DNA from: an uncultured Ruficoccus sp.
GTDB lineage: Bacteria; Verrucomicrobiota; Verrucomicrobiia; Opitutales; Cerasicoccaceae
Assembly: GCA_965140785.1 (NCBI GenBank)
Contig: OZ223510.1
Coordinates: forward strand, 241,857-305,856
Length of the DNA: 64,000 nt
Reading direction: 5' to 3'
In this document: in pieces, positions 21,758 through 35,525 of the stretch
Layout of the letters: each line of letters begins with the position of its first letter
How positions within the stretch are numbered: the stretch's first letter is position 1
The notes under the pieces: model-generated
The model's input: only the letters and a program-made list of their open reading frames with translations
Databases searched by the model: none
Told to the model about the DNA's origin: nothing
Position numbers and translations under genes: made by a program

Positions 21758-23305
21758 TTACTCGGAGTCCGCCGGAGGCTCTCCCTGCCGGTAGAAAAGC
21801 TCGCCCAGGCTGCGCAGGTACGTGGCACTCTCACGCCAGAGCGTGTCGAGCTGCTCGGGATGATAGCGCCACTGCCAGTTGCCCGCGGCCTCGCCAGGTC
21901 TATTCATACGGGCCTCGGAACCGAGATTCATCAGGTCCTGCATGGGGATGATGGCCAGGCGTGAGACCGAGCGATAGGCGGCGCGGATGCAGTCCCACTG
22001 CGGTACCGATCCGTCCACGCTGAAATAACGACGGAAATGATCCGCAGTTTTGCCGTCAGCTGAGCGGTACCAGCCCAGTGTGGTGTCGTTGTCATGCACC
22101 CCGGGATAGACGACACTGTTAGGAATCAGGTTGTGCGGGAGGTAGAGATTGTCGCTGCCGGAGCCGAAGGCAAATTGCAGGATCGCCATGCCCGGCAGGC
22201 CGGTGGCCCGGTGCATCGCGCGTACCTCGGGTGTGATTTCGCCTAAATCCTCGGCGATGAGCTTCGCGCCGGGCATTTCTTTCTGCACGGCCTTGAAAAA
22301 GTCGAGCCCCGGCCCGGGCTTCCATTTTCCACCGCGGGCGTCCTTGGCACCGGCCGGGACGGACCAGTACGACTCGAACCCCCGGAAGTGGTCCAATCGG
22401 ATGATGTCGTAGAGCTTGAAATTCGCTTCCAGCCGTTTCAGCCACCACGCGTAGCCCTCCTCTTTGAGCTTGTCCCAGTTGAAGAGGGGATTGCCCCAAA
22501 GCTGGCCCAACGGGGAGAAATAGTCTGGCGGGACACCGGCCATTGCGGTCGGCTGGGCGTTCTTGTCGAGTTGAAACAGCTCAGGCCGCGCCCAGACATC
22601 GGCGCTGTCGAGCGCGACAAAGATCGGCACGTCGCCGATGATTTCCACGTTTTTGCCCGCCGCATAGGCGCGTACCTCCCGCCACTGATTAAAAAACAGG
22701 TACTGAGTGAACTTGACCGCCTCCATAGGTGCGCTGAGTTCTTTCTGAAGATCGCTTTGGCAAAAATCGGCGTAGGTGCGGTATTTTTTCGGCCACTCGA
22801 ACCACGGCTTGCCACCAAAGTGCGCCTTGCAGGCCATAAAAGCGGCGTAGGGCGTCAGCCAGTCGGATTCCTCTTGGGAAAATTCGACATAAGAACCGTA
22901 GCCGGGCAAACCATTCGGATCACCACCGAAGCGCTCACAGGCCATCCCCAGGATGGGCCAGAACCGCTGGTAAAGCTCGCCGTAGTCCACATGATCCTGC
23001 GGCAAGTGGCGTAGCGGCTTCAATTCCTCGTCCTTGAGCAGGCCCAAGCCGACCAGCGCATGCAAATCGATCAGATACGGATTCCCGGCAAAAGCCGAAA
23101 AGCACTGGTAGGGCGAGTCGCCATACCCAGTCGGCCCCATTGGGCACAGTTGCCAGTGCCGCATGCCCGCCGCCTCCAGAAAATCAATCAGCCGCCGGGC
23201 CTCGCGTCCCAGCTTACCGATCCCCAGTTCACCGGGCAGGGAGGTTGGGTGCAGAAGCACACCCGCGTGACGGTATTCGAGCCAGGGAAAGAGTGGTGAC
23301 GCCAT
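21758..23305 (-). CDS. malQ: 4-alpha-glucanotransferase (amylomaltase, GH77)
   Basis: LHPTSLPG, GDSPYQ, GVPPDYFS, RLDHFRGF, AEDLG and HDNDT motifs. Confidence 0.95.
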   Translation of the reverse strand: MASPLFPWLEYRHAGVLLHPTSLPGELGIGKLGREARRLIDFLEAAGMRHWQLCPMGPTGYGDSPYQCFSAFAGNPYLIDLHALVGLGLLKDEELKPLRHLPQDHVDYGELYQRFWPILGMACERFGGDPNGLPGYGSYVEFSQEESDWLTPYAAFMACKAHFGGKPWFEWPKKYRTYADFCQSDLQKELSAPMEAVKFTQYLFFNQWREVRAYAAGKNVEIIGDVPIFVALDSADVWARPELFQLDKNAQPTAMAGVPPDYFSPLGQLWGNPLFNWDKLKEEGYAWWLKRLEANFKLYDIIRLDHFRGFESYWSVPAGAKDARGGKWKPGPGLDFFKAVQKEMPGAKLIAEDLGEITPEVRAMHRATGLPGMAILQFAFGSGSDNLYLPHNLIPNSVVYPGVHDNDTTLGWYRSADGKTADHFRRYFSVDGSVPQWDCIRAAYRSVSRLAIIPMQDLMNLGSEARMNRPGEAAGNWQWRYHPEQLDTLWRESATYLRSLGELFYRQGEPPADSE

Positions 23306-23407
23306 AGAATATGCCTAAAGTACCCAGACAGCCATCGGGCCGTCAAAACGAAAGGAGCAGGGACGCTGCCAGTCAGTGAATAAATCCGAAAATGGCCGTC
23401 GCAATAA

Positions 23408-23435
23408 ATTAGACATAATGTTTATTGTGCGAAAT
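23408..23435 (-). other. dif-like XerC/XerD recombination site; left boundary of the prophage
   Basis: Minus strand reads ATTTCGCACAA-TAAACA-TTATGTCTAAT, an 11-6-11 match to dif (E. coli GGTGCGCATAA-TGTATA-TTATGTTAAAT). Confidence 0.8.
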
Positions 23436-23480
23436 TCGCTAGGTGGAGAAAAAACCGCAAGCTATCTAAGCTGTTGCGGT

Positions 23481-23645
23481 TCAACCTTTAGCACCGTGCT
23501 GTTCAAGCAGTCTGGAAATGTGGAAGCGGACCCAATTGGATTCGGTCCGGCCTTCCTTGGCAGCGACTTCCTTTAAGCGAGCTTTCATTTCCTTGGTTAC
23601 GACAGCTTGAATGACGGCGGAGTCCTTACCTCGTTCGCCCTTCAT
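23481..23645 (-). CDS. Ribbon-helix-helix (CopG/Arc-like) repressor
   Basis: 54 aa; VIQAVVTKEMKARLKEVAAKEGRTESNWVRFHI beta-alpha-alpha pattern; start set at MKGER. Confidence 0.7.
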   Translation of the reverse strand: MKGERGKDSAVIQAVVTKEMKARLKEVAAKEGRTESNWVRFHISRLLEQHGAKG

Positions 23646-23696
23646 TGATTCAGAACTCCTTATATAGTTCGTCGGGTTTGTCAATTGTATTGCAGC

Positions 23697-23746
23697 GGGA
23701 GTAATACTCTAACATATATGTCGATGTAATCGGGAGTATGACTCCC
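23697..23746. promoter_or_regulatory. Two palindromic operator-like sites GGGAGT-N3-ACTC(C/T)
   Basis: GGGAGTAATACTCT (23697-23710) and GGGAGTATGACTCCC (23732-23746) upstream of the RHH gene. Confidence 0.55.
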
Positions 23747-23791
23747 AAATACCTCCCCCACGTAGATTGATATGCAACAGGCAGAGCAAAC

Positions 23792-24292
23792 TTACAGCTT
23801 CGGCGGAATCAGGGGCAGTTTAGCCCTAATTTCCTCCGGCGTCATCCTGCCAGCGTCACCCACTATATGGACAAGCGGTATCCCGGCTGCACTGAATACG
23901 GCATCAACGAATTCGTCACGTTGTTTCCGGTCTTCTCTCTGGTGCGATGCGTCATCCAGTTCGACCGCAAAGGCAATTTCGCTCGGCCCCCGGGTGATGA
24001 CGAAATCGACGTGTTTCCTGTCAGTTCGAGCACGCATGGAACCATACGCTCTACGGTCTTGCGTACCCTTTATGCGGATCACGTCCGCCACTCGCACCTT
24101 GCTGTGTATGTGCATGTCTTCGGGCAGGCAGCGTTTGAGCAGGTGGAAAAGCACGCATTCGTGCCTCGTCAGAAGCCATTTCCGCGCCTCGGCCAGTGTC
24201 GTGTCTGCCGCGTTGCCTTCTGGTTTTCGCAAGGCTTTGAGCATGGTCGCAATGACCAATAATACCGCAAATCCAATAATGATATAGGTCAT
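23792..24292 (-). CDS. DUF2726-domain protein with N-terminal membrane anchor
   Basis: LLTRHE, KVRVADVI, KHVDFVI, AVELDDASH, RDEFVD and AGIP motifs. Confidence 0.85.
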   Translation of the reverse strand: MTYIIIGFAVLLVIATMLKALRKPEGNAADTTLAEARKWLLTRHECVLFHLLKRCLPEDMHIHSKVRVADVIRIKGTQDRRAYGSMRARTDRKHVDFVITRGPSEIAFAVELDDASHQREDRKQRDEFVDAVFSAAGIPLVHIVGDAGRMTPEEIRAKLPLIPPKL

Positions 24293-24359
24293 GTGCTCAG
24301 ACTATCCGGTATTTACCAAGCAGTAAAATCCAAAACCACTCAAACCGAAGGAACCGAAA

Positions 24360-24646
24360 TGACATCAGAAGAAACGATCCGCCTTACTGAGGCTGCACAA
24401 TCAATCGGGCTGACAAAATTCCCCGATTTGCAAATGGAAGTCTGCGACTGGGAAACTCGCGTTTCCTACAGTGAACGCAACGGCGTTGAATACGACCACC
24501 GCGGGCAAATTTGCGTTATGCTGTTTGAGCGTCTTGATGAGGCTAAAGCCCGTCGTCTTTACTTCTCGAATCGGTATCCAGATTGGCGGGTATATCGTCG
24601 TGGCAATCGGGTTGTTATCACCCTCAAGGAAAAGGCCGTGGCATGA
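24360..24646 (+). CDS. Hypothetical phage protein
   Basis: ATG after GAAGGA; stop overlaps the next ATG (ATGA). Confidence 0.6.
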
Positions 24647-25044
24647 GTACCCCAAGCGCCCTATCCGCTCTGCGGTCTGCCCGTGCTCAAGTGGATCTGA
24701 TCCACTGCGGATTACATCATTCTTTCGGTTGCATGGGCGAAGTTGCCCTGGACGCTATGCGGGATGAATTGCTCTCTTACTTAGAGGCTGAAATTTTGCT
24801 CCTCCCCGTGGAGGCGCAAGCGTCGGAACCTTCGGCGGGGGGGCGGGCAATGAGTGGTATCGAGCCCGCTCCCACACGAGGTTTACCGCGCATGTTCATG
24901 CGTTCGGAACCCCGCGACAAGACCGTCTGCTTTGTCCTGACGGAACGCGAACGCAAGCGGCTTAGATCTATGGCTAAATCCCAGGGCATCACGGTTTCCG
25001 CGCTGTGTGCCGAATGGATCACAGAAAGGCTTTCTGATGCGTGA
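24643..25044 (+). CDS. Hypothetical phage protein with C-terminal RHH-like domain
   Basis: KTVCFVLTERERKRLRSMAKSQGITVSALCAEWI; may instead start at 24850. Confidence 0.55.
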   Translation: MSTPSALSALRSARAQVDLIHCGLHHSFGCMGEVALDAMRDELLSYLEAEILLLPVEAQASEPSAGGRAMSGIEPAPTRGLPRMFMRSEPRDKTVCFVLTERERKRLRSMAKSQGITVSALCAEWITERLSDA

Positions 25045-25136
25045 CAATCGTCACCATCAAGGCGGGAGCGGGAGGTTGGCGAGCACGCCGTCAGCCTCCC
25101 GTATTCGTTTTTCACTACACACACCCACGTTGCCCC

Positions 25137-25274
25137 ATGCTTCCGTATGACGCTCAAGAATTCTTTGTAGGCGTAGGCGCTTGGCTCGCTTTTTTCGGGG
25201 CTGCGTGGTGGTCGCAAGTCGCGATCCGTTTTTTCAAACGGATGTTCGATGCAGCATCGGACATTCCTTCGTAA
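25137..25274 (+). CDS. Small TM minor virion protein (pVII/pIX-like)
   Basis: 45 aa with one hydrophobic helix, immediately upstream of the major coat gene. Confidence 0.6.
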   Translation: MLPYDAQEFFVGVGAWLAFFGAAWWSQVAIRFFKRMFDAASDIPS

Positions 25275-25302
25275 CCCAACCCAAACCGAAAGGTATCGTA
25301 TC

Positions 25303-25536
25303 ATGAACAACTGGAAAAACAAGCTCCTCGCTGGCGGTGTCGTTCTCGCCTCCGGCGTTAGCGCTCACGCTCAGACCACCGGCGTCGATTACTCGGCCTT
25401 GCAGAGTGCAGTCACCGGGGAAATCCCTGGCGTTCTGACTGCCGGTCTGGCCATCGGTGCCGCCGCCGTCGGCCTGCTCGCCGCTCCCAAGGGCGTACGC
25501 TTCATCAAGAAGATGTGGTCCGCCATCGCTGGCTAA
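25303..25536 (+). CDS. Major coat protein (pVIII-like)
   Basis: 77 aa: signal peptide ending AHA, amphipathic segment, TM helix, basic C-terminus KGVRFIKK; GAAAGG RBS. Confidence 0.85.
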   Translation: MNNWKNKLLAGGVVLASGVSAHAQTTGVDYSALQSAVTGEIPGVLTAGLAIGAAAVGLLAAPKGVRFIKKMWSAIAG

Positions 25537-25539
25537 ACC

Positions 25540-25581
25540 GGGGAGGGGGGCGAATCCCGCCTGCCCCCTACCCTTTTTTTT
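25540..25581 (+). terminator. Intrinsic terminator after the major coat gene
   Basis: G-rich/C-rich stem followed by T8, the usual position in inoviruses. Confidence 0.7.
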
Positions 25582-25584
25582 GCC

Positions 25585-25722
25585 ATGACTGACACGCAAT
25601 TACTGCAAGAAATTCTGACTCAGGCTGAGTTTGCGAACGCTCAGCTTCGGGTGATGTTTCAGGCCGAAATTGCAGCGGTCATCATCCTTATTTGGTCAAT
25701 CTTTTGGGCTCAACTTCGATGA
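25585..25722 (+). CDS. Small TM protein (45 aa), not in the ORF track
   Basis: MTDTQLLQEILTQAEFANAQLRVMFQAEIAAVIILIWSIFWAQLR; ATGA overlap with the next gene. Confidence 0.6.
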   Translation: MTDTQLLQEILTQAEFANAQLRVMFQAEIAAVIILIWSIFWAQLR

Positions 25723-26906
25723 ACAGGCATCTGTATATACTGTTCATGCTTTACGCGGCTTATGTTCAAGCCGCTGAGCCGGTAGCTTCATGGTCTGGTG
25801 TGGTCACTTCAACCACCAGTTATGGAACATACACCATGAATTGCAGCTTTGATCTTTTCGGTACAGAGGGCGCTTATTACATCGAACCGAATAGCTTCGA
25901 TGCAGTAAGAGACGACGGTTATGTCGTTCCCGGTGCCCAATTATTCTATGAGCAGATTGAGGGCGGCATTAAGTTTTACCGTGGGGGTTCTATATCTTAC
26001 TCGGTTCACGAATTATTCGCGTCACAAGACCCCGACCCCGATCCGGACCCTGACCCTGACCCCGGCGAAGAAACGGACGACGGGCTATATATGCATAATG
26101 CGGAGTCGGACGAAATCCATAACGGGACCGATGAGCCTCAGACGTACATTTACAGCATCGTGCATGAGGATGGCACGGTAGAGACCGGGGAAATCACGCT
26201 GCAGCCGGGAGAGTCCGCCACGATCAAGGGCGGTAGCCGATTAGACCCCTATTCCATGAGCGTATGGAAGAAAAACCCGGACGGAACGCTTACCAAGGTT
26301 GGGGACTATGCGTCCTCAAGTGCTGAGCACACCTCCGACACGCAACCGGGCTCAAGCACTCCCAGTGTGACGCATTCGGACGGCTCGACCACATCGGCCC
26401 TTGAACCTAATAGCAGAGGCCGCACGGATTCATCAGGGGGCAGTGCGGACACGGCAATTATCGATGATAACTCAGAGGCCCGGCACCAAGAGCAACTAGA
26501 GCAGGACCGCAAAATAGCCGAGGCCGAAAAAGCCGAGTTGCAACGCATTCGAAAAGCCATCGGTAAAGACGGGGACGGCTCCGGCGTATCTGCCGACGAT
26601 GACGAATACCCCGAAGGCCCGGACTGGAGCACGTCCAACATTGAAGCCCTCGATAACGTTGAGGGCATGATTGATAGTGTGATTGGCAAACTGCCCTCCA
26701 TCGAAGCCCTGCCGGTCGTCAGCGGTCGTAACTATACCTATGACATCAACGGCGGCGATTTCATGGATATGACGTTCAACTTTACGATCGATCTGACGCA
26801 GTACATTTCCGCCATCGAGCTAATCAGGACCTTAGAGGAAGCCCTGATCATCATCATGTTTATCATCGCTGCCATTCGCATGGTGCGGGGAGGTTTTGCC
26901 GGATGA
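25719..26906 (+). CDS. Adsorption protein (pIII-like)
   Basis: Signal peptide, (DP)6 linker at 26028-26063, Ser/Gly/Asp-rich linkers, C-terminal TM anchor. Confidence 0.8.
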   Translation: MNRHLYILFMLYAAYVQAAEPVASWSGVVTSTTSYGTYTMNCSFDLFGTEGAYYIEPNSFDAVRDDGYVVPGAQLFYEQIEGGIKFYRGGSISYSVHELFASQDPDPDPDPDPDPGEETDDGLYMHNAESDEIHNGTDEPQTYIYSIVHEDGTVETGEITLQPGESATIKGGSRLDPYSMSVWKKNPDGTLTKVGDYASSSAEHTSDTQPGSSTPSVTHSDGSTTSALEPNSRGRTDSSGGSADTAIIDDNSEARHQEQLEQDRKIAEAEKAELQRIRKAIGKDGDGSGVSADDDEYPEGPDWSTSNIEALDNVEGMIDSVIGKLPSIEALPVVSGRNYTYDINGGDFMDMTFNFTIDLTQYISAIELIRTLEEALIIIMFIIAAIRMVRGGFAG

Positions 26907-27259
26907 GCATTTTGGGCAAGATGGAAGATAGCATCGGCTGGATGCAGAAGCTTTCCAAGCCGCTCAAGCTGCTGTTTGCCCCTGTCATCGGTTTTCTGAC
27001 CGTGGCCTATGCCGTGGTAGCCTATGGGATGACGATGCTTTCACGCCTGCTTCTTTGGATCGATAGCCGGGTGGCCGATCTGGACCTTTCCGTGGGAGGG
27101 CATCACCTCGATTCGGTCGCAACGGATTTTTGGGTAACGATCAATACCTTTATCCCGGTGGACCTCGTCTTTGCCCTCGGAACAACACTGCTTGCTCTCC
27201 GGGGCGTCATGGCCGTGGTCCGCATTGTCAAGTCGTGGATTCCAACCATGTCCGGCTAG
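26903..27259 (+). CDS. Minor coat protein (pVI-like)
   Basis: 118 aa hydrophobic protein between pIII-like and pI-like genes, ending VRIVKSWIP. Confidence 0.75.
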   Translation: MSILGKMEDSIGWMQKLSKPLKLLFAPVIGFLTVAYAVVAYGMTMLSRLLLWIDSRVADLDLSVGGHHLDSVATDFWVTINTFIPVDLVFALGTTLLALRGVMAVVRIVKSWIPTMSG

Positions 27260-27261
27260 TT

Positions 27262-28449
27262 ATGAAAGACGCCATCTTCAGAGTCTTTGCCGGTACGCTC
27301 GGCAGCTACAAGTCTTATCACGGTGTTGTCGAAGCTCTCGAAACCTTGGAGCGCGGCGGTATCGTCATGACGAATATCGAGCTTCGTTGGGACCGCATAA
27401 AATACTGGTTCGAAGACGAAAAGGATTTGCTCCTGGACGATAAGCAATACGTCCACATCGACCCGGAGCAGGCTTCATCGTTCGTGAATCTGTTGGTGAA
27501 GGGCGAACGCGATAAGCCGAACAAGCTCATTATCGATGAAGCGGGCCTTCATCACAACACGATGGACAAGCGACAGATGGACCGCGTCGTGTTGGAAATG
27601 ATCGTCCACGCCCGTAAGCTTTTCATCGATACGGTTTTCATCGCTCACCACTTTACCGAGATCCTCGCGCAGATCCGCAACAAGGCTCAAAGCGTCATCT
27701 GGTTTCGGGATCTGCAAAAGATTAAATGGCTGGGGATCTCTGTGCCGGTTCCGGCCTACATCTTTTCGGAAGTCGATGCCCGCAACCCGAAGCTGAAGTA
27801 TGATTCGGCGTTCCGCTGGAAAAAGAAATTCGTCTATAAGCTCTATGTCTCCCATGACATTCAGTCGAAGGCGCTTGAGGTCATCCAGACCAAGCCTTTG
27901 ATCGAGGTTAAGCGCGTCCAGCATGCTGTAACGAAGTCGGATATCCTCCGCCGCTCGGCCAAGCGCTGGGTGCGCCGTCTGGTCTTTGGCGGGGCCATGG
28001 TCTGGGCCGGGATGCTCTTTGCCGGCCAAGCCGCGCCCGAGCCGGCCAGCGTGCCGGCGACTGATTCCAGCCAGGTTAAAACGCCTGAGCCGGTCGCCGC
28101 GGCAAAACCTGCGCAGACCGTCGAAGATCCCGCGCCCGCGCCTAAACCGGATCGCTCGATCAAGTCCGTGTCGTTCATGGGCCGCGCTCGGATGCTGGAG
28201 CCGACACGCGGGGATCAGGTCGGTTACTGCACCTTTGATTTCGTCAGCCTGCGCCTGGGCGACGGTCGCGTCATCCGTGAGACGCATCCCGACTTTGGCG
28301 GCTTTCGTCGCTCGGACAATACCGCGCTTATCGCGGGCGAGGTGTACACCTACAAGCAAGAAGATTTCCCGGCTGATCAGCTGGGCCAAACCAACCACAA
28401 AAACACAATCCAACTACTCAAAGATAATGAAACAATTAGTAATCCGTGA
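27262..28449 (+). CDS. Zot/pI morphogenesis ATPase
   Basis: GTLGSYKS Walker A, LIIDEA Walker B, HARKLFID, then a TM helix and periplasmic C-terminus. Confidence 0.88.
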   Translation: MKDAIFRVFAGTLGSYKSYHGVVEALETLERGGIVMTNIELRWDRIKYWFEDEKDLLLDDKQYVHIDPEQASSFVNLLVKGERDKPNKLIIDEAGLHHNTMDKRQMDRVVLEMIVHARKLFIDTVFIAHHFTEILAQIRNKAQSVIWFRDLQKIKWLGISVPVPAYIFSEVDARNPKLKYDSAFRWKKKFVYKLYVSHDIQSKALEVIQTKPLIEVKRVQHAVTKSDILRRSAKRWVRRLVFGGAMVWAGMLFAGQAAPEPASVPATDSSQVKTPEPVAAAKPAQTVEDPAPAPKPDRSIKSVSFMGRARMLEPTRGDQVGYCTFDFVSLRLGDGRVIRETHPDFGGFRRSDNTALIAGEVYTYKQEDFPADQLGQTNHKNTIQLLKDNETISNP

Positions 28450-28759
28450 CGAAAATATCGAGGTCCAGCATACTGAAGAATCCGTTAAGGATGGTAAGCG
28501 TTATCCGTCCTCGATCATGATCACCATCGCCGCCAGCGGCTTTGATTCGCAGATGTCGTTCTTCTTGGATATGTCGCCGGAAGCTCTCAAGCTGCTTAAT
28601 ATTGAGGAAGTCGGCACCAGGAAGCGCCACAAGGTAAAGGAAGCTATATTCGTCATCGCTCCGGGCTTCGGCAAAAGCAACTTCTCGAAGATCCGCGCCG
28701 AGCACCTTCAGAAGTTCGACGCCAAGCCCTACGTTGAAAATCCACTGGCTGCTGCGTAA
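28427..28759 (+). CDS. Putative ssDNA-binding protein (pV-like)
   Basis: 110 aa, beta-rich and basic, next to Rep; function inferred from size and position. Confidence 0.5.
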   Translation: MKQLVIRDENIEVQHTEESVKDGKRYPSSIMITIAASGFDSQMSFFLDMSPEALKLLNIEEVGTRKRHKVKEAIFVIAPGFGKSNFSKIRAEHLQKFDAKPYVENPLAAA

Positions 28760-29095
28760 TGCACCTGTACGACGGTAGCGCACTTGGGGAGGTCGGGCCT
28801 ATGGGTCCGGCCTCTCTGTCTTTCGGTGCCGACGTTGCCCCTTCCAATAGAGGCCACCAGCCGCAGGCGGGTCTCCCGTCATCCCGGCTTGACCAAGCTT
28901 TAGCTTGGTCCCCTGGCCAACTGTTTTATCCCCCACTGAAAAAGCTGTATCCAGCTTTTGCTCACCCGTGGCGGTCACGCCACGTCAAACCCCTGAAAAC
29001 GCGCCAGAGGGGCCACAGAACGCCCCATTTGGCCCTTCTCGTATCCCACATCAAAGAAAAAGCCCGCCCTGCGGTAACAGGTCGGGCCTTCACAA

Positions 29096-30040
29096 ATGGA
29101 AAATCTAGGAGAATTTTCGATGCACAGCCCTGTACATTCATCACAGAATGTCAAGTCTCGAACGAAAGAGGGGCGCAACGAATCGCTCGCCAGCGCGGCC
29201 CCGCCGCGCGGCAGCGATTCGGCCGCGCCCCTTCCTTGTCTAGAAACAAACAACTCAACCGAAAGCTACAGGCCGACCGCCCAAAAAGCCTCTAAATTCA
29301 TCGTCAATGAGGCGGCCTTAGAGCTCATTCAATCCGAAGGTATAGAGACAATCCTGTTTACGACGTTGACCTTCCCCCGCCCTGTCACCCTCAAGGAGGC
29401 ACAGAAGGCATGGAATAGTGCTGCTACCCATGCTTTACGCCCTGCCATCCCTAAAGCTCTGCGCATCCTGGAGCCTCACAAGACAAAGCAACCGCATTAC
29501 CACCTCTTGGAGGCCACCGGGAAGGATGTACGCCGGGGGTTCGACTTCGAGGCTTACCAGCGGGCAAGGTCCGTTCATTGGGCCAGCGCTGAGGGGCGCA
29601 AGGCTACCCGCGAGTATGGGGCCAGTGCCAACGATGACTTGCGCGAGTCCTGGGCATTTCACCGGCGTTTGGTGCGGTTCGGCTTTGGCCGGTCGGAGGC
29701 CGTCCCTATCTACAAAGTCGGGGAAGCCGCTGCCGACTATGCCTCTAAGTACGTGGCCAAGGAAGATCGACCCGTCGAATACAAGGGCGCTCGGCTGTTC
29801 TCGGCTATGAACTGGAAGCCGTCCACCCGGAGAGGCTTTGGGTTCGTGGACTCGGGCCGGGCTTGGCGGCTGGCGGTCGCACGGATCGCGGAGGACATGG
29901 GCTTTACCTCTGAGGCCGACTTTCGCCGGGAGTTCGGCCCCAACTGGGCTTGGGGCCTGCGCGGAACCATCTTCAGCATTGCCGAAGAAATCAAAGCCCA
30001 ATATCGCAAACGGCCCTTAGATGATGCAAAAGGAGTTTGA
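29096..30040 (+). CDS. Rolling-circle replication initiator (HUH endonuclease)
   Basis: Motif I FTTLTF, motif II PHYHLL, motif III YASKYVAK. Confidence 0.85.
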   Translation: MENLGEFSMHSPVHSSQNVKSRTKEGRNESLASAAPPRGSDSAAPLPCLETNNSTESYRPTAQKASKFIVNEAALELIQSEGIETILFTTLTFPRPVTLKEAQKAWNSAATHALRPAIPKALRILEPHKTKQPHYHLLEATGKDVRRGFDFEAYQRARSVHWASAEGRKATREYGASANDDLRESWAFHRRLVRFGFGRSEAVPIYKVGEAAADYASKYVAKEDRPVEYKGARLFSAMNWKPSTRRGFGFVDSGRAWRLAVARIAEDMGFTSEADFRREFGPNWAWGLRGTIFSIAEEIKAQYRKRPLDDAKGV

Positions 30041-30293
30041 TTTTGCCCGCGAATACACCCACGGCCTGCGCCCGGTCGTGTGGGGAGTTCGAAAGCGCCT
30101 AAAGGTCGATGAGGTTTACAAGATCGTCCCGGATCACTTGGCCGATCTCCCGGCGATCTACGTTGCCTCCCGTGTCCAGGCACGATCAATGGCCCGGTTT
30201 TACTCGGCCCTACCGGGAAAGGGGTTCGTGCTTGTCTTTAAGGGACGGAAAGTAATTCGAGAACGCAGGCCCAAGGCTATTCCATGGGACTAA
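30021..30293 (+). CDS. Hypothetical phage protein
   Basis: 90 aa ORF overlapping the Rep stop, same GC as the phage core. Confidence 0.55.
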   Translation: MMQKEFDFAREYTHGLRPVVWGVRKRLKVDEVYKIVPDHLADLPAIYVASRVQARSMARFYSALPGKGFVLVFKGRKVIRERRPKAIPWD

Positions 30294-30393
30294 GTATTGC
30301 TTGCTTGCATGTGCACATTCTACGCAATGATGCATAAGTCGTTTTGTTACTGCGTTTCCTTATTTACATGGTGAATAATAGCCTTAGACTGGC

Positions 30394-30906
30394 ATGAATA
30401 ACATGAATCGTGTAGCAAAACATCTAGAAATGCACTCGATAGGATTGAAGGATGCCGTTGATATTGATTTATTTGGGAGGAGTGCATTCAATAGGTTTTA
30501 TTATTCTGCTTACTGGACTGTTCGGGATAGCTTGTCGCCGATACGACCAAGCATCTCTAAGCAGCCACATAAAAACATGCCCATTTATTTAAAAAACTCC
30601 TTCAAGAATTATCTTTTAAAGAAATGTACAGTACTAGAATCTAAAAAAATAATAAAACCATCTGAATCTAAAAGAATTCAGTCGATAATTCGAAGTCAAT
30701 TAATGTCGATATCTAGTTCACTTGAAAACGCCTATTACGTTAGATGTATTGCAGATTATTACCTTGAAGAAAAAGCCATACTTATTGGAAATAAAATCAG
30801 GCTAGGAGGCATGTCCTCTTCAGACGTGTCATCTATTGACACCAAAGTTAAGTCAGCAACTGATACTTTAGTAAAAACATGTCATGAAAATGGACTTTAT
30901 CAATAA
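30394..30906 (+). CDS. HEPN-like protein, putative retron effector
   Basis: SAFNRFYYSAY and RCIADY (RxxADY) motifs of HEPN/UPF0332-type proteins. Confidence 0.7.
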   Translation: MNNMNRVAKHLEMHSIGLKDAVDIDLFGRSAFNRFYYSAYWTVRDSLSPIRPSISKQPHKNMPIYLKNSFKNYLLKKCTVLESKKIIKPSESKRIQSIIRSQLMSISSSLENAYYVRCIADYYLEEKAILIGNKIRLGGMSSSDVSSIDTKVKSATDTLVKTCHENGLYQ

Positions 30907-31621
30907 ACTAGATGATTTCCTTAAGGACTATGCGAATGGGTCATATGATCTAATTGACGTAATAGACTCTCCCGATGGATACATAATTACTATTTCTACG
31001 AAACTAAAAGGGAGATCGGATCGATCAAAAAGACTTGTAGTAACAAGGCTTTTGGACGAATTTAAAGATGCGTCTAAGGTTATAGTAAGGGAATCTGAAG
31101 TTGAATCTAATTTAGAAAAATTACTATTCATACCCATAAAATCTAGCATTGGGGTCGACCCAATTGGGTTAAACTTTGAAATTGAGAAAAATAAAGCCAA
31201 GATTGAATTAACAGTAAAAAATACAGGCTCAGGAAATAATGAAGACATTGAGATTAAAATTAAAGATTTAATCCATGGCGTGCTATCGCCAATAGGAATA
31301 AGCATTTCAAGCCTGTCAGTTATAGTCAAAAGCGGATCTAAAATCCCGAATCCATTGATAATCAAAAGTATTATTGTTTTGGCTCCCGTTGACTTTGAGT
31401 CTCTCTATGACTGCATAAATGAGAGATATGGAAGCGAGTATGAGTTCAACCATAAGGTGCTTAGGCGTATAATAGACGACCTAAGAAAGGAAAAGCTTGT
31501 GGTATGGTCGCCAAATGGATATCTTGCCTCTCCTAGGGCCATAGACGCGTTGTCTGGCAGTAAGAGTCGTAATTCTCTGGACATTCAAAGAGCGTTAAAT
31601 ATGAAATTTCAGCAATGGTAA
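30884..31621 (+). CDS. Retron-associated protein with probable C-terminal winged helix
   Basis: Overlaps the HEPN gene; C-terminal LRRIIDDLRKEKLVVWSPNGYLAS wHTH-like pattern. Confidence 0.6.
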   Translation: MKMDFINKLDDFLKDYANGSYDLIDVIDSPDGYIITISTKLKGRSDRSKRLVVTRLLDEFKDASKVIVRESEVESNLEKLLFIPIKSSIGVDPIGLNFEIEKNKAKIELTVKNTGSGNNEDIEIKIKDLIHGVLSPIGISISSLSVIVKSGSKIPNPLIIKSIIVLAPVDFESLYDCINERYGSEYEFNHKVLRRIIDDLRKEKLVVWSPNGYLASPRAIDALSGSKSRNSLDIQRALNMKFQQW

Positions 31622-31627
31622 ATTTCA

Positions 31628-31815
31628 CCAGGATAGGTGGTGTCGATGTCACTGCGAAAGGGTGCATCACCCTTGTTTGCAGAGGTCTGGCACAGAAGGT
31701 CCGGCATCTTACTGGATGCCGCCTCCTTCGTAGCCGGCATCCAGTAAGATGCCGACGCTCAACGGAAGTATCATATAGCTTCGCTAAATGACAATGCATG
31801 CACCACCTATCCTGG
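31628..31815 (+). ncRNA. Retron msr-msd ncRNA
   Basis: Perfect 15-bp a1/a2 inverted repeat (CCAGGATAGGTGGTG 31628-31642 / 31801-31815), msr stem-loop 31652-31682, 20-bp perfect msd hairpin 31702-31721/31735-31754. Confidence 0.85.
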
Positions 31816-32783
31816 GTATTTTTGGAAATGACCTAAAACGACTCGAAGCAAATTTCGAGTTTATTAGGACAAACGAGTTTGATCAATTAAAGCGACTATA
31901 TGGAAAGGGACTTCCTCCAGTTGTCTCTGCGCATTCTGTAGCCTTAATTTTCGGATATTCGCCTCAATTCGTTGGGTTAATGATGAAGCGTCCAAATCGC
32001 TTTTATAGAACATTTCAGATTCCAAAAGGTAAAAACAAAGTTAGAAAAATAGAAGCTCCGCGTGTATCTTTAAAAATAATTCAAAAATGGATCGGACATC
32101 ATATTGCTCGCCAAATTAAACTTCCAAGCCATGTGTGCGGTTTCGTACCAGGAAAAAGCATAATAGATGGCGCAATGGCTCATTGTGGATGTGAGTGGTT
32201 ATTTCAAACGGATATAAGCAATTTCTTCCAGAGTACACGGTTCTATGCTGTTACTAATGCTCTCAGAACAATAGGTTATTGCGAGCGTGGTTCAGTGACA
32301 TTAGCTAGGCTCTGCTGCTTAAATGACAACTTAGCGCAAGGAGCTCCAAGCAGTCCTGCCCTATCTAATCTTGTTTTCAGAAAAATAGACAGCGAGTTAA
32401 TCCAATTTTGCTCAATGCACAATTATACATACACAAGGTATGCGGATGATATCGCGGTCTCAGGAAGTGGAAAATATCCATCTGAGGTTAAAAGATCGAT
32501 CGAGAATATTATTGATTCCCATGACTACAAAATCGCTACTCTGAAAAGTAAGGTCTCTATCGCACCAGCGAGAAGGAAAGTATATGGCTTACTTGTAAAT
32601 GGTAAGGTACCACGCCTTACAAAAGGATACCGTAACAGAATCCGGGCCTTGAAACATTTATCAGAGCATGGACGCATCAAAGAGGACGATTATTCAACAA
32701 TTATGGGGCATATATCGTATGCAGAGAGTGTCGAAGCTAGGATTGCCGACATCTTATCGAAGCAAAATGAGTCGGATCGGTAA
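31788..32783 (+). CDS. Retron reverse transcriptase
   Basis: RKIEAP, GAMAH (NAxxH-like), DISNFF, LAQGAPSSP, YTRYADD and VYGL (VTG-like region Y). Confidence 0.93.
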   Translation: MTMHAPPILGIFGNDLKRLEANFEFIRTNEFDQLKRLYGKGLPPVVSAHSVALIFGYSPQFVGLMMKRPNRFYRTFQIPKGKNKVRKIEAPRVSLKIIQKWIGHHIARQIKLPSHVCGFVPGKSIIDGAMAHCGCEWLFQTDISNFFQSTRFYAVTNALRTIGYCERGSVTLARLCCLNDNLAQGAPSSPALSNLVFRKIDSELIQFCSMHNYTYTRYADDIAVSGSGKYPSEVKRSIENIIDSHDYKIATLKSKVSIAPARRKVYGLLVNGKVPRLTKGYRNRIRALKHLSEHGRIKEDDYSTIMGHISYAESVEARIADILSKQNESDR

Positions 32784-32844
32784 AACGATTGACGCATTTT
32801 CGATTTATCTCGACATTTAATGATAAGAAATTCTAATAATTCAA

Positions 32845-32942
32845 GCCGTGGACATTTGTAAATCTTGCGGGTAGAATATAGGGCTTCGCACGTGCTGCGT
32901 ATCCATTTCTGGATATTGGAAAAGCTGTTTATTGTGCGTATT
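32845..32942 (+). repeat. Cassette-end repeat copy 1: promoter + hairpin + half dif (right end of prophage)
   Basis: TGGACA 32849-N17-TAGAAT 32872; TTCGCAC 32885; TGTTTA-TTGTGCG 32926-32938. Confidence 0.8.
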
Positions 32943-32999
32943 CGTATGTCTTTATGTTGACATAGCTAACGCCAATCAGTGACTTGGGCCTACCATCTC

Positions 33000-33452
33000 A
33001 TGAAGCCTAATATCCCTACTCTAGCAAAGGTTATACTCTGGTTGTCATTGTTAGCTGGTGGCTGGAACGCGATCATTGGCGGTGTTTTTTTATCTTCCCC
33101 ACCTCAGCAGAATTCATTGCTGGATGTCGATGGGATGAAAAACGTTTTGATCCTCTCCAGCCTCCTTGGGCTATACTTCCTGATCGTATCTATTTCAGCA
33201 CTCCAGAGAAAGGAAGCAGGACGAAAGGGCTACCTCGTCGGACTGGTCCTGATGATTTTAGGCACCCTTGCTTGGTATGGCTATAATGTGGCAAGTGCAC
33301 CTAAGCCGCTTATTATTATTATTGTAGGTGCGGTTGGAATGGTCATCCCGATTGGATTGCTGGTGATCCTCTACAGGTATTTCAGCTCACAAACTGTCCG
33401 CGAAGCTTACCAGGCAGAGCCAACTACCTGCACACAGGATTACAAAAACTAA
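33000..33452 (+). CDS. Hypothetical four-TM membrane protein (cassette gene)
   Basis: About 150 aa with four hydrophobic segments; sole gene between repeat copies 1 and 2. Confidence 0.7.
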   Translation: MKPNIPTLAKVILWLSLLAGGWNAIIGGVFLSSPPQQNSLLDVDGMKNVLILSSLLGLYFLIVSISALQRKEAGRKGYLVGLVLMILGTLAWYGYNVASAPKPLIIIIVGAVGMVIPIGLLVILYRYFSSQTVREAYQAEPTTCTQDYKN

Positions 33453-33558
33453 TGCCGTGAGGCGTGGACATTCGTGGGACTGGCGAGTAGAATATAGGGT
33501 CTCGTACGTGCTGGATCGGGATTTTTGAATCTTAGCGATCCTGTTTATTGTGCGGTTG
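33421..33558 (+). repeat. Cassette-end repeat copy 2
   Basis: CAGGATTACAAAA.CTAATGCCGTGAGGCG-TGGACA 33465-N17-TAGAAT 33488; TGTTTATTGTGCG 33542-33554. Confidence 0.85.
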
Positions 33559-33622
33559 TTGGGTTTGTATAATTAAGCAACCTTGACGATTCGTACATTT
33601 CTGAGCATTCCCAATATACCTT

Positions 33623-33958
33623 ATGGCCATCAATAAATCGGATATCCATCAGCAGGCAAAACTCGCATTGGCTGCAATCAAAGCAGCGTATAACGCTGAA
33701 GATGATGATTCCGATGTGACATTATACGTCGCGCATCATCTGGCAGAGGTCGATGCTTCCTACTGGAATAATAGATTCCAAACCAATCAGCCAGCCCCCT
33801 CGCAGATACTTGACGCGCTGATTCTTTGTTCAGACATTGAAGAGATAGACAACCTTGATAGCCTGGACTTTACTCTGCCGGGCCGTGTGACCGACTATCT
33901 GCTTTGCGTTACGTTCAATGAAGACGGAGAAGTCGAGGACATCGCCATGGAAAGCTGA
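33623..33958 (+). CDS. Acidic DUF2004-like protein (cassette gene)
   Basis: C-terminus DFTLPGRVTDYLLCVTFNEDGEVEDIAMES resembles DUF2004 (recalled, not searched). Confidence 0.6.
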   Translation: MAINKSDIHQQAKLALAAIKAAYNAEDDDSDVTLYVAHHLAEVDASYWNNRFQTNQPAPSQILDALILCSDIEEIDNLDSLDFTLPGRVTDYLLCVTFNEDGEVEDIAMES

Positions 33959-33979
33959 TTTTGGCCTCGAAACGATCCG

Positions 33980-34117
33980 CAACTATCACTACGCAGGATT
34001 ACAAAATCTAATGCCGTGAGGCGTGGACATTCCCACTGCTACGTACTAAAATATAGGGTCTCGCACGTGCTGAATCAGGATTTCTGAATCCTAGCGATCC
34101 TGCTTATTGTGCGAGTT
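33980..34117 (+). repeat. Cassette-end repeat copy 3
   Basis: Same upstream block; TGGACA 34024-N17-TAAAAT 34047; CTCGCAC 34060 pairs with GTGCGAG 34109; TGCTTATTGTGCG 34101-34113. Confidence 0.85.
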
Positions 34118-34156
34118 GTCCATTCGGGAAGCTTGCAATCTTGACGATCAAATACA

Positions 34157-35525
34157 GGACCACGTAAAGATATCCATAAAATTAGGAAGCAAATAAGGAT
34201 GTTCATGATAATTAAATTATTAAATATTCAAAGTATTTTACTAAAAAAAATAGTTTTCAATAACAAAAAGAATAACTTCAAATTTAATAATAGCTCCTTT
34301 ATTATTATACACATCACAATAATTTGGTGCAGAAAAAATAGTAATAACTGCTGGAAATTCATTAGACCCATTCCATTTATACATCTTATACCCATCAATC
34401 TAAGCTTCATGTGCCCTAATTACCGAAAGCAATCCACATGCCTTTAAAAACTTATTAACAGCTTCCATTCTAATAATTAATTCATTATTTAATTAATTAA
34501 CCCATAAATAAATGAACACCCTCTAACTTCATTTGCCTTAAAGTCTTAAGGTAAATGTCCATCTTCTGATTCAATTGGATCCGACCATATTAAATCACTA
34601 AAAGCAAAAATAAATTGAATTTATAAACTAAAAAACCAAAGTAATCCAGATTTTGGTGGTTCAGTGTATCTATCGATTTTTTATAAATCTGCTAACGATC
34701 TTAAAGCTGGAGAGATCCCACCATGAATACCTATAAACTTCCCATTAATAATAGAACATAAAGGAATCATCTCAAATGATTCCATCATTATCTCATAAAT
34801 TTCTTAATCGTATTTATAGATACCTTTTTTTAAATTAAATTTTAAATGGGGTAAAAACATTCATCACGGAAGTTAAAATATGTTGTCATTTAACGACATT
34901 CATGGTTACCACGAATAAATTGTATTGTTGTTGGATAGTTTAACTTTAATTTAACTATTATTATTAAATCAGATTACCTTAAGAGAATAAAGAAGCACTA
35001 TCACTTCAATTGAAAAAGAACCTCTATCCACAAAATCTCCAAGAAATAAATACCTTTAATAAAAATATATCATGCGATTATTTTTACTTTGTATTTTCTG
35101 GTTTTCCACCAATATCCAAAATTTTAACTAAATCATAATATTATCTTCAATTGAAATTAATAAAATTAAAAGGAATAACCCATGAATATCCCCAACTACT
35201 GTTACAGGGTCATCAATTTTCAATATATTACTTTCACTCTCTATATAAAATTAAAATTCAATAAAAATTATCAATTTACTAAAAATATTATTCGTTGCTG
35301 AGACTAATTTAATCAAATCTTCCTTTTTAATTCTTCCTTCCTGACTTAAATGATCCTTAAGTAATCTCCAGTCAGGTTTTCCTTTAAAAAGCTCAGAAAA
35401 TATATTAGTAATATCCTACCTTGCAATGAAATAGGAAACATTAATGAGGATTCTAATGGCCTATGCGGTGGAGCTCTTACTTTCTTTACTTGGCGATCAT
35501 TAAAAGGATCTTTTAAAGGCTACAT
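34157..35525 (-). CDS. Calcineurin A (PP2B)-like Ser/Thr phosphatase, ciliate, 3'-truncated at the junction
   Basis: Spliced reading gives GDIHG, GDFVDRG, RGNHE, HGG, WSDP, SAPNY and [21 protein letters not shown]=Gln; short GT-AG introns. Confidence 0.9.

Follow-up and report, generated by a model that had tools for sequence, protein, structure and literature searches.

A repeated dif core beside malQ

We examined a 64,000-nt stretch of DNA (hereafter the window) from the genome of an uncultured Ruficoccus sp. (Verrucomicrobiota), in which a filamentous phage (inovirus) and a series of sub-kilobase, single-gene units stand one behind the other at a chromosomal dif site. The window makes up the final 64 kb of contig C39 of the source genome (G000; 4.36 Mb in 50 contigs), and we compared it with four sister species of the same genus (G001, G002, G003, and G004). 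On the left of the locus lies the host gene malQ, encoding a 4-alpha-glucanotransferase (21758–23305, minus strand; Pfam Glyco_hydro_77, E = 1.5e-168), which is found to the left of dif also in G002 and G004 and, as judged by eye from N-terminal similarity, in G003. It is followed by an intact chromosomal dif of 28 nt (23408–23435, plus strand), composed of the arm ATTAGACATAA, the central region TGTTTA and the arm TTGTGCGAAAT; going by the E. coli dif, we take the first to be the XerD-type and the second the XerC-type arm. The full 28-nt dif had one match in the G000 genome at up to 6 mismatches, and exactly one full dif was found in each of the four sister species.

The sequence TGYTTATTGTGCG occurs at 23419, 32926, 33542, and 34101, always on the plus strand, and none of 100 shuffled sequences gave four matches. 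The same four sites are the sole exact matches to the 13-nt core TG(T/C)TTATTGTGCG in the 50 contigs of G000. This recurrence, together with core-to-core distances of 9507, 616, and 559 bp, had been proposed in the initial annotation of the window and was reproduced exactly by our search; the proposed link of the repeated sequence to dif was likewise borne out by the restriction of the core to four sites and of the full dif to one. In the three right-hand sites (starting at 32915, 33531, and 34090) the central region and the XerC-type arm are kept and the XerD-type arm agrees with dif at about 6 of 11 positions, so that these are hybrid sites. An intact dif on one side and a hybrid dif-like site on the other is the junction pattern of integrative mobile elements exploiting Xer (IMEX).

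Scanning of the 19 open reading frames (ORFs) of 21758–34447 against Pfam and PHROGs gave no match to an integrase or transposase family, in agreement with the earlier reading, and a reverse transcriptase that is part of a retron is present. The host itself encodes XerD (TIGR02225, 364 bits, above cut-off, contig C48) and a second Xer protein, XerC-like (271 bits), on contig C19, about 4 kb from lepB. The latter gene occupies C19:5088–5963 and hence lies near the dif array.

The resident inovirus prophage

The element to the right of dif is an inovirus prophage of about 9.5 kb (23436–32938, plus strand) with matches to the Coat B, Zot, and Rep_ORF2-G2P families, and it is the only Zot-bearing element of G000 (one Zot match genome-wide). 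Its left end carries a ribbon-helix-helix (RHH) repressor-like gene (23481–23684, minus strand; weak matches to RHH_5 and to CopG/Arc-like repressor PHROGs), which is kept at the left ends of the phages of G001 and G003. Between this gene and dif we read from the sequence a terminator made of a hairpin and a T-run. Further to the right are genes for a DUF2726 protein (23792–24292, minus strand; Pfam E = 2.1e-26), the major coat protein (Inovirus coat B; 25249–25536, plus strand; Pfam E = 1e-5, phrog_2186 E = 2.8e-10), a Zot-like, pI-like assembly ATPase (27130–28449, plus strand; Pfam Zot E = 4.5e-12, phrog_197 E = 3.3e-14), and a replication initiator-like protein (29096–30040, plus strand; Pfam REP_ORF2-G2P E = 1.2e-4). 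The last conserved phage gene (30021–30293, plus strand) encodes 90 amino acids (aa) and belongs to no family. The presence of coat B, a Zot/pI-like ATPase, and Rep (below the Pfam gathering score) within one element of 6–10 kb marks it as an inovirus. A homologous prophage occupies the same place in G001, with core proteins of 45–77% aa identity, and the Rep-like protein is 75–77% identical to those of the G001 and G003 phages. Among the examined loci the proteins of the window phage matched only L001–L005, and a tblastn search with the Zot-like protein against 50,697 phage records gave no match.

Between the last conserved phage gene and the right end of the phage we recognized a cargo slot of 2.4 kb with about 40% GC. 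It is filled by a type IX retron (30394–32783, plus strand), all three proteins of which were matched by PADLOC: HEPN_IX (30394–30906; 1.7e-29), a helix-turn-helix protein, HTH_IX (30884–31621; 1e-18), and the reverse transcriptase RT_IX (31788–32783; 1.9e-117). The interval 31622–31787, between the HTH_IX and RT_IX genes, contains a 23-nt inverted repeat (31702–31724 and 31732–31754, 96% complementary). This stretch, 31702–31754, is a candidate for the msr/msd region of the retron; no Rfam family was matched across 30200–34200.

The repeat as the right end of a phage family

The prophage ends on the right in a repeat (R1; 32801–32938, plus strand) comprising promoter-like hexamers, a hairpin, a degenerate XerD-type arm, the central region, and the XerC-type arm. 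In R1 the hexamers are TGGACA (32849) and TAGAAT (32877), separated by 17 nt, and the hairpin reads TATCCA-TTTC-TGGATA. Within the window the repetition is visible as a 117-nt direct repeat (32822–32938, 33438–33554, and 33997–34113), the shared block reaching about 140 nt when it is aligned without gaps with the copies of the sister species. A DNA search for the repeat covered 61 relatives and each of the 16 family genomes; outside G000 it turned up only in two species of the genus, G001 and G003, and thus in 3 of the 16. One copy was seen in G001 and one in G003, and nhmmer detected no extra copy elsewhere in G000 or inside the cargo regions. In both sister species a full inovirus prophage stretches from the single intact dif, its left junction, to the repeat, its right junction, and is followed by lepB and lepA. 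The cargo slot of the G001 phage holds different AT-rich cargo, a HepT-like gene among it, and the G003 phage is without cargo, the stop codon of its last gene lying inside the start of the repeat. As each of the two species carries one copy at the right junction of a full prophage, we read the repeat as the non-coding right end of the phage family and not as a cassette-specific site of the small units.

Alignment of five copies from three species (R1, R2, R3, G1_R, and G3_R) was gapless over 146 columns. It showed that the −35-like hexamer TGGACA is invariant at all 6 positions and the −10-like hexamer (TAGAAT/TAAAAT) at 5 of 6, one or other of the two forms being present in all three window copies. 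The spacing of the hexamers is always 17 nt, with only 2 of the 17 spacer columns invariant. Conserved hexamers around a variable spacer form the pattern expected of a working promoter or of a promoter-like single-strand origin. The predicted direction of the promoter is rightwards, over the dif-like core and into the gene of the next unit.

A hairpin of 5–8 bp with a 4-nt loop was predicted in all five copies, with two distinct stem sequences in slightly shifted register. An inverted TCGCAC-type arm was seen in the window copies and is absent from the G003 copy. This inverted copy of the XerC-type arm, 5–7 bp in length, takes part in base pairing in the minimum-energy folds of R3 and G1_R and, to some extent, of R2, but not in those of R1 and G3_R, and the z-scores of the folds, made on single repeat copies, ranged from −0.6 to −2.9. 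The initial annotation had described three right-hand copies that lack the XerD arm and share a conserved block with an inverted arm and a hairpin, and had suggested a folded, single-stranded attP like that of CTXphi. The loss of the XerD-type arm, the shared block, and the hairpin hold for all copies concerned; the inverted arm, missing from the folds of 2 of the 5 copies, is not a constant feature, and a CTX-type forked hairpin finds no clear support in these folds. By analogy with TLCphi and VGJphi, a double-stranded attP whose XerD arm is degenerate and whose central region matches would be at least as likely.

The copies also differ in their relationships. R2 and R3 have an identity of 0.83 to each other, of 0.85 and 0.79, respectively, to the phage end of G001, and of 0.64–0.69 to the resident R1. 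Since they are closer to each other and to the G001 end than to R1, we regard them as separate arrivals and not as copies of the resident end.

The small units and their genes

Unit 1 (32939–33554, plus strand; 616 bp) consists of a left end, one gene, and the repeat R2 (33417–33554), and unit 2 (33555–34113, plus strand; 559 bp) of a left end, one gene, and the repeat R3 (33976–34113; central region TGCTTA). The gene of unit 1 is a hydrophobic ORF of 157 aa (32979–33452, plus strand), the last codons of which lie inside R2, and that of unit 2 encodes a 111-aa protein (33623–33958, plus strand). The two genes are unrelated, so each small unit indeed carries one gene of its own, as had been noticed before. 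A 105-aa form of the unit 1 protein is present in the protein database; beyond this shorter form the protein search found no homologue, only sub-threshold matches to membrane proteins.

The unit 2 protein had no Pfam or NCBIfam match, and a homologue 56% identical to it is named DUF2004 by NCBI. Its AlphaFold model (pLDDT 84) gave nothing at E ≤ 0.001 in a Foldseek search of the PDB, and the best VIA-align result (Z 5.1) pointed to a generic cystatin/NTF2-like alpha+beta roll, to which no function was assigned. Homologues are widespread over many phyla, with 43 loci in genome_contigs and 108 in metagenome_contigs, 80 of the latter being kept (L006–L128, 123 loci); the gene was found in none of the four other species of the genus. 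Pfam searches of their neighbors covered 40 of 59 ORFs of 7 loci, with L008, L011, and some others omitted. The closest homologues (55–58% identity) come from L006 and L007, two loci with long flanks from Verrucomicrobiota metagenome-assembled genomes, where they belong to runs of small genes, all on the same strand, with attC-like repeats between them. In L006:5900–11800 and L007:5300–12600 there are about ten such genes with repeats of the form AACAAG...GTTAGAT/GTTCGG, and a type VI secretion system immunity gene (Tdi1) is present. Judged by the general attC consensus, these runs look like chromosomal integron cassette arrays, and by this setting of its homologues the unit 2 gene is one of a pool of small accessory genes that are mobile. 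With up to 2 mismatches allowed, the core was found in 14 of the 123 homologue loci, about the estimated chance number. The one exact match, in L042, and near matches in L071 and L085, considered as homologues beside dif-like sites, proved to be ordinary chromosomal contexts.

The bacterial part of the window ends with the first 44 nt of a third unit (34114–34157, plus strand), which has the motif GCAAyCTTGACGAT in common with the left end of unit 2 (p about 0.006 in local and about 0.018 in global alignment). This 14-mer is absent from the left ends of the three full phages. Alignments of the unit left ends with the left boundary of the phage cargo regions were at chance level (p 0.35–0.92). 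A decayed repeat or dif at the left edge of the cargo regions was also sought and rejected, as nhmmer detected none and two resemblances noticed by eye were not significant.

Extent of the array and a chimeric join

The unit-bearing stretch is present, in the form of contigs, in two sequencing runs of one study, and we examined the Logan contigs of run X1. Record 2 of this run covers 24838–33535 and record 3 covers 33520–34157, both without differences from the window. Past 34157, record 3 continues with 625 nt of other sequence, the end of which resembles the start of R3 over 34 nt and, after 7 other letters, the middle of R2 over 56 nt, perfectly in register with the repeat. The geometry of this contig suggests a fourth repeat copy 688 nt after the third, and hence a third unit of about 688 bp, of which some 528 nt, plus the fourth repeat, would lie beyond 34157. 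Two joints of record 3, which go back by 552 and by 160 nt, were considered as circle junctions and were identified as this fourth repeat copy.

In the window, by contrast with record 3, position 34157 is followed by foreign, eukaryote-like DNA of 22% GC (34158–64000), which is not part of the array. From 34158 to the end of the contig (about 30 kb) there is no ORF of at least 100 aa under translation table 11. A separate X1 contig, with a depth several-fold higher than that of the bacterial part, begins exactly at 34158, and from this contig and the continuation of record 3 we conclude that 34157/34158 is a chimeric join produced by misassembly. When read in the ciliate code (TAA and TAG as glutamine), the AT-rich DNA contains a piece with four PDB matches, all of them to ribosomal protein P2 (weak, E = 0.025–0.2), and a piece of an alpha/beta-hydrolase. 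It is probably ciliate-like eukaryote DNA misjoined to bacterial contigs, and annotation of the genome record should not treat the tail after 34157 as bacterial. Similar long low-GC stretches were noticed in G000 at C20:60001–93795 and over the whole of C28. The contig depths in X1 (2.2 for the malQ flank, 5.5 for the phage, and 7.2 for the units) were considered as a sign of extra copies and set aside, being one figure per contig with the phage partly uncovered.

The other side of the locus is found at the beginning of contig C19, which opens with lepB and lepA, the last 44 codons of lepB missing. We take the true order to be malQ, dif, phage, unit 1, unit 2, unit 3 (about 688 bp), possibly more units, and lepB.

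The malQ–lepB locus in sister species

In G002 the dif between malQ and lepB is nearly empty, with only a stub of about 75 nt from a phage left end. G004 has one gene of 238 aa between dif and lepB, perhaps native, perhaps an insertion that has decayed completely; it lies at 1606–2322 of L131, has a signal-peptide-like start, and shows no second dif-like core nearby. G001 contains a relic in the form of a truncated RHH gene abutting the lepB stop codon. The relics of G001 and G002 are irregular, consisting of left-end stubs that run into the lepB flank, with the left end of the phage kept and the right end lost.

Both G001 (L004) and G003 (L005) carry a second, inverted inovirus on the XerD-arm side of dif, so that dif is flanked head-to-head by two prophages. 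The core genes of the inverted G003 prophage are the most similar to those of the window phage; the right-hand prophage of G003 is a mosaic, combining a different core with the same end genes and repeat. The terminator of the window phage (hairpin and T-run, 23436–23480) is nearly the same sequence as the G002 stub (L132, 1525–1600), where it would terminate lepB. From this near match it appears that phage left ends and the host flank of dif have evidently exchanged sequence.

Assembly of the array

We interpret the locus as an IMEX array at the single chromosomal dif between malQ and lepB. Serial, Xer-mediated entry at dif is, in our judgment, highly probable, because every element terminates precisely in the central region and XerC-type arm, Xer proteins are encoded by the host, the elements have no recombinase of their own, and the intact site stands at one end. 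This agrees with the initial annotation, which had proposed serial addition at dif through host XerCD: the units stand at a unique chromosomal dif, XerD and an XerC-like gene are available in the host, and the order is as expected for serial insertion. The elements would have entered singly at the intact dif, the newest being nearest to it, and each insertion would leave a hybrid site in which the XerC-type arm is kept and the XerD-type arm lost.

Two more explanations of the array were weighed against such entry. Local multiplication of the repeat without Xer, by unequal crossing-over or replication slippage with capture of unrelated DNA, would suit direct and closely spaced copies; yet the copies differ by 17–36% (identities 0.64–0.83), R2 and R3 are as near to the phage end of another species as to each other, the DNA between the copies is unrelated from unit to unit, and the end of each copy falls precisely on the central region with its XerC-type arm, as is the signature of a site-specific join, and we hold this explanation to be very improbable. 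That the array is an assembly artefact of collapsed or mis-joined repeats can practically be dismissed, even with a proven mis-join at 34157/34158 of the same contig, as the copies are too diverged for collapse and X1 records 2 and 3 run without differences through R1, unit 1, the greater part of R2, unit 2, and R3 (the two records have no more than 16 nt in common, inside R2, and X1 may stem from the source sample itself, so that it counts as a second assembler and not as independent DNA).

What arrived at dif is less certain than how. Our preferred reading is that the units are miniphage-like satellites that integrated as such, a reading whose chance we place slightly below even. The miniatures would have arisen as miniphage-type deletion derivatives of cargo-bearing phages of the same family, keeping the cis-acting end module and the adjacent cargo gene. 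A helper phage would replicate and package these derivatives, and they would integrate by means of an attP that they carry themselves. Within the array, each repeat's promoter would point into the gene of the next unit, and in the circle it would drive the unit's own gene. The sequences themselves show the anatomy of the locus, the single dif, the phage descent of the repeat, the conserved promoter hexamers and hairpin, and the Xer genes of the host; that the elements depend on Xer, in which order they entered, that the units began as satellites, and that the promoter works are inferences.

Several observations favor a satellite origin. The three consecutive units are of similar length, at 616, 559, and about 688 bp, and elements of intermediate size are missing. 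Every unit joins one small cargo gene to a short left end and to a complete end module of about 140 nt, a shape opposite to that of the relics of G001 and G002, which retain the left end and not the right. Units 2 and 3 have in common a left-end 14-mer that the full phages lack, and R2 and R3 are, by their identities, separate arrivals. Pf miniphages are reported to arise repeatedly with deletion edges differing by a few nucleotides (PMC11996451), and about 120 nt of phiLf to be enough for replication and for the production of miniphages (10.1101/2023.12.30.573655).

Other points weigh against it. Among the contigs examined, no circle junction, empty-site variant, or second unit-bearing genome was found, the other holders of the stretch being contigs, which are blind to rare circles. 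A 25-base repeat pattern had 0 matches in genome_contigs, viral_contigs, and metagenome_contigs, a result that does not show absence, as near relatives were perhaps excluded. An origin, a nick site, and a packaging signal within the end modules of the units are putative. The likeness between units 2 and 3 rests on one 14-mer, the left end of unit 1 is unlike those of units 2 and 3 or any phage end, and the size of unit 3 is an estimate from contig geometry. Moreover, in-place decay clearly occurs at the malQ–lepB locus in relatives, and Vibrio inoviruses are described, in the accessible part of one study, as degrading while the cargo region is kept (PMC12715192).

These last points lead to the strongest alternative, already raised in the initial annotation as a possible refutation, in which the units are relics in place: three older full prophages, integrated serially at dif, would each have lost their core genes, the cargo gene surviving as useful to the host and the upstream repeat surviving as its promoter. 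Cargo lies directly upstream of the end module both in the window phage, as the retron, and in the phage of G001, as the HepT-like gene and others, and therefore deletion of the core would leave exactly cargo and repeat. The truncated RHH gene at the lepB stop of G001 and the left-end stub of G002 are deletion remnants at the very same locus, and the unmatched left end of unit 1 is also compatible with decay. The first 25 nt or so of unit 3 resemble by eye the left end of the G001 relic, a pair that the global alignment did not single out. However, three independent deletions would be needed, each starting within about 70 nt of the XerC-type arm and ending before a single small gene, with all the resulting units at 559–688 bp and nothing intermediate, and the remnants actually seen in relatives have the opposite shape. 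The left-end motif shared by units 2 and 3 does not occur in the three full-length phages, and the unit left ends, as noted above, are unlike the left boundary of the phage cargo regions. We regard decay in place as a real possibility, somewhat less likely than a satellite origin.

Comparison with known systems

Serial insertion at dif by XerCD is the known logic of IMEX arrays. In the parts of the Vibrio literature available, integrase-less filamentous phages and satellites are reported to insert serially at dif by host XerCD, and CTX-I inoviruses to carry hypervariable, defence-rich cargo beside one end and a repressor gene at the other, with degraded members keeping the cargo (PMC12715192; 10.64898/2026.06.12.731946). 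The locus described here shares with the Vibrio arrays (CTXphi, RS1, TLCphi, and VGJphi) the serial insertion at dif, one intact dif at the end of the array, the lack of an own integrase, and a repressor gene at one phage end with variable cargo beside the other. It differs from them in the host phylum, Verrucomicrobiota, and in the phage lineage, which is unrelated by the tblastn result given above; no XafT-like gene was recognized in it. The small members of the array measure 0.56–0.69 kb and hold one gene, whereas RS1 and TLCphi are far larger. Also, each unit has a conserved, outward promoter-like element, and its evidence for a forked-hairpin attP is not convincing.

The defective interfering or cheater derivatives of Ff, Pf, and phiLf known as miniphages are likewise sub-genomic and keep a non-coding, cis-acting region, to which the end module would correspond in our units, helper dependence being presumed. 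The accessible portions of the literature describe miniphages as helper-dependent and recurrent with near-identical deletion edges (PMC11996451; 10.1101/2023.12.30.573655). In contrast to the units, the known ones are, in the same portions, episomal laboratory or within-host variants and are not described there as dif-integrated, as stacked, or as provided with a different accessory gene each.

The published idea of an Xer cassette is that of the dif modules reported from Acinetobacter plasmids, in which Xer sites bound small sets of accessory genes and mobility is ascribed to XerCD (PMC6449649; PMC13141974). Those dif modules are plasmid-borne and lie between full pdif sites, whereas our units stand at the chromosomal dif and have a phage end as their common module. 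Moreover, pdif sites of Acinetobacter alternate in orientation, while the four cores of the window are all on the plus strand and three of them are without the XerD-type arm.

The array had also been likened to an integron. Stacked, promoter-dependent, single-gene units of about 0.6 kb, with the newest beside the recombination site, are common to both, and this functional likeness is the part of the comparison that we retain. The site here is dif-like, and there is a promoter in each unit as opposed to one common Pc. The best TIGR02249 (integron integrase, IntI) match in G000 reached 84 bits against a cut-off of 265, the matches being the Xer genes, and no attC-like sites were seen in the array, the repeat lacking, by eye, the RYYYAAC...GTTRRRY ends of the general consensus. 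A more far-reaching reading would see a phage-borne, Xer-driven gene-cassette system, with helper-packaged circles of 0.55–0.7 kb stacking at dif and exchanging genes with the cargo slot. Each circle would comprise one accessory gene and an inovirus end module (promoter, hairpin, and attP), would be expressed from the promoter of the preceding unit, and would draw on a gene pool shared with the integron cassettes of other Verrucomicrobiota. We consider this rather unlikely. On the whole, the locus behaves like an IMEX array of the Vibrio type with a hotspot for cargo, and its small units come nearest to miniphages or to relics that retain their cargo. In a limited literature search, we found no description of sub-kilobase, single-gene units bounded by a filamentous phage end module at a chromosomal dif.

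Implications

The locus supplies a clean and testable module of promoter and hairpin. Even if the units are relics, it extends to Verrucomicrobiota the pattern of Vibrio, with inoviruses at dif, a slot for defence genes beside their attachment end, and cargo that survives the phage. Should the units prove mobile, they would count as about the smallest Xer-exploiting elements on record. In that case the end module of a filamentous phage would by itself make a single gene into a transmissible, self-expressing, dif-targeted cassette, and there would be a route of gene flow parallel to integrons that needs only host enzymes and a helper phage.

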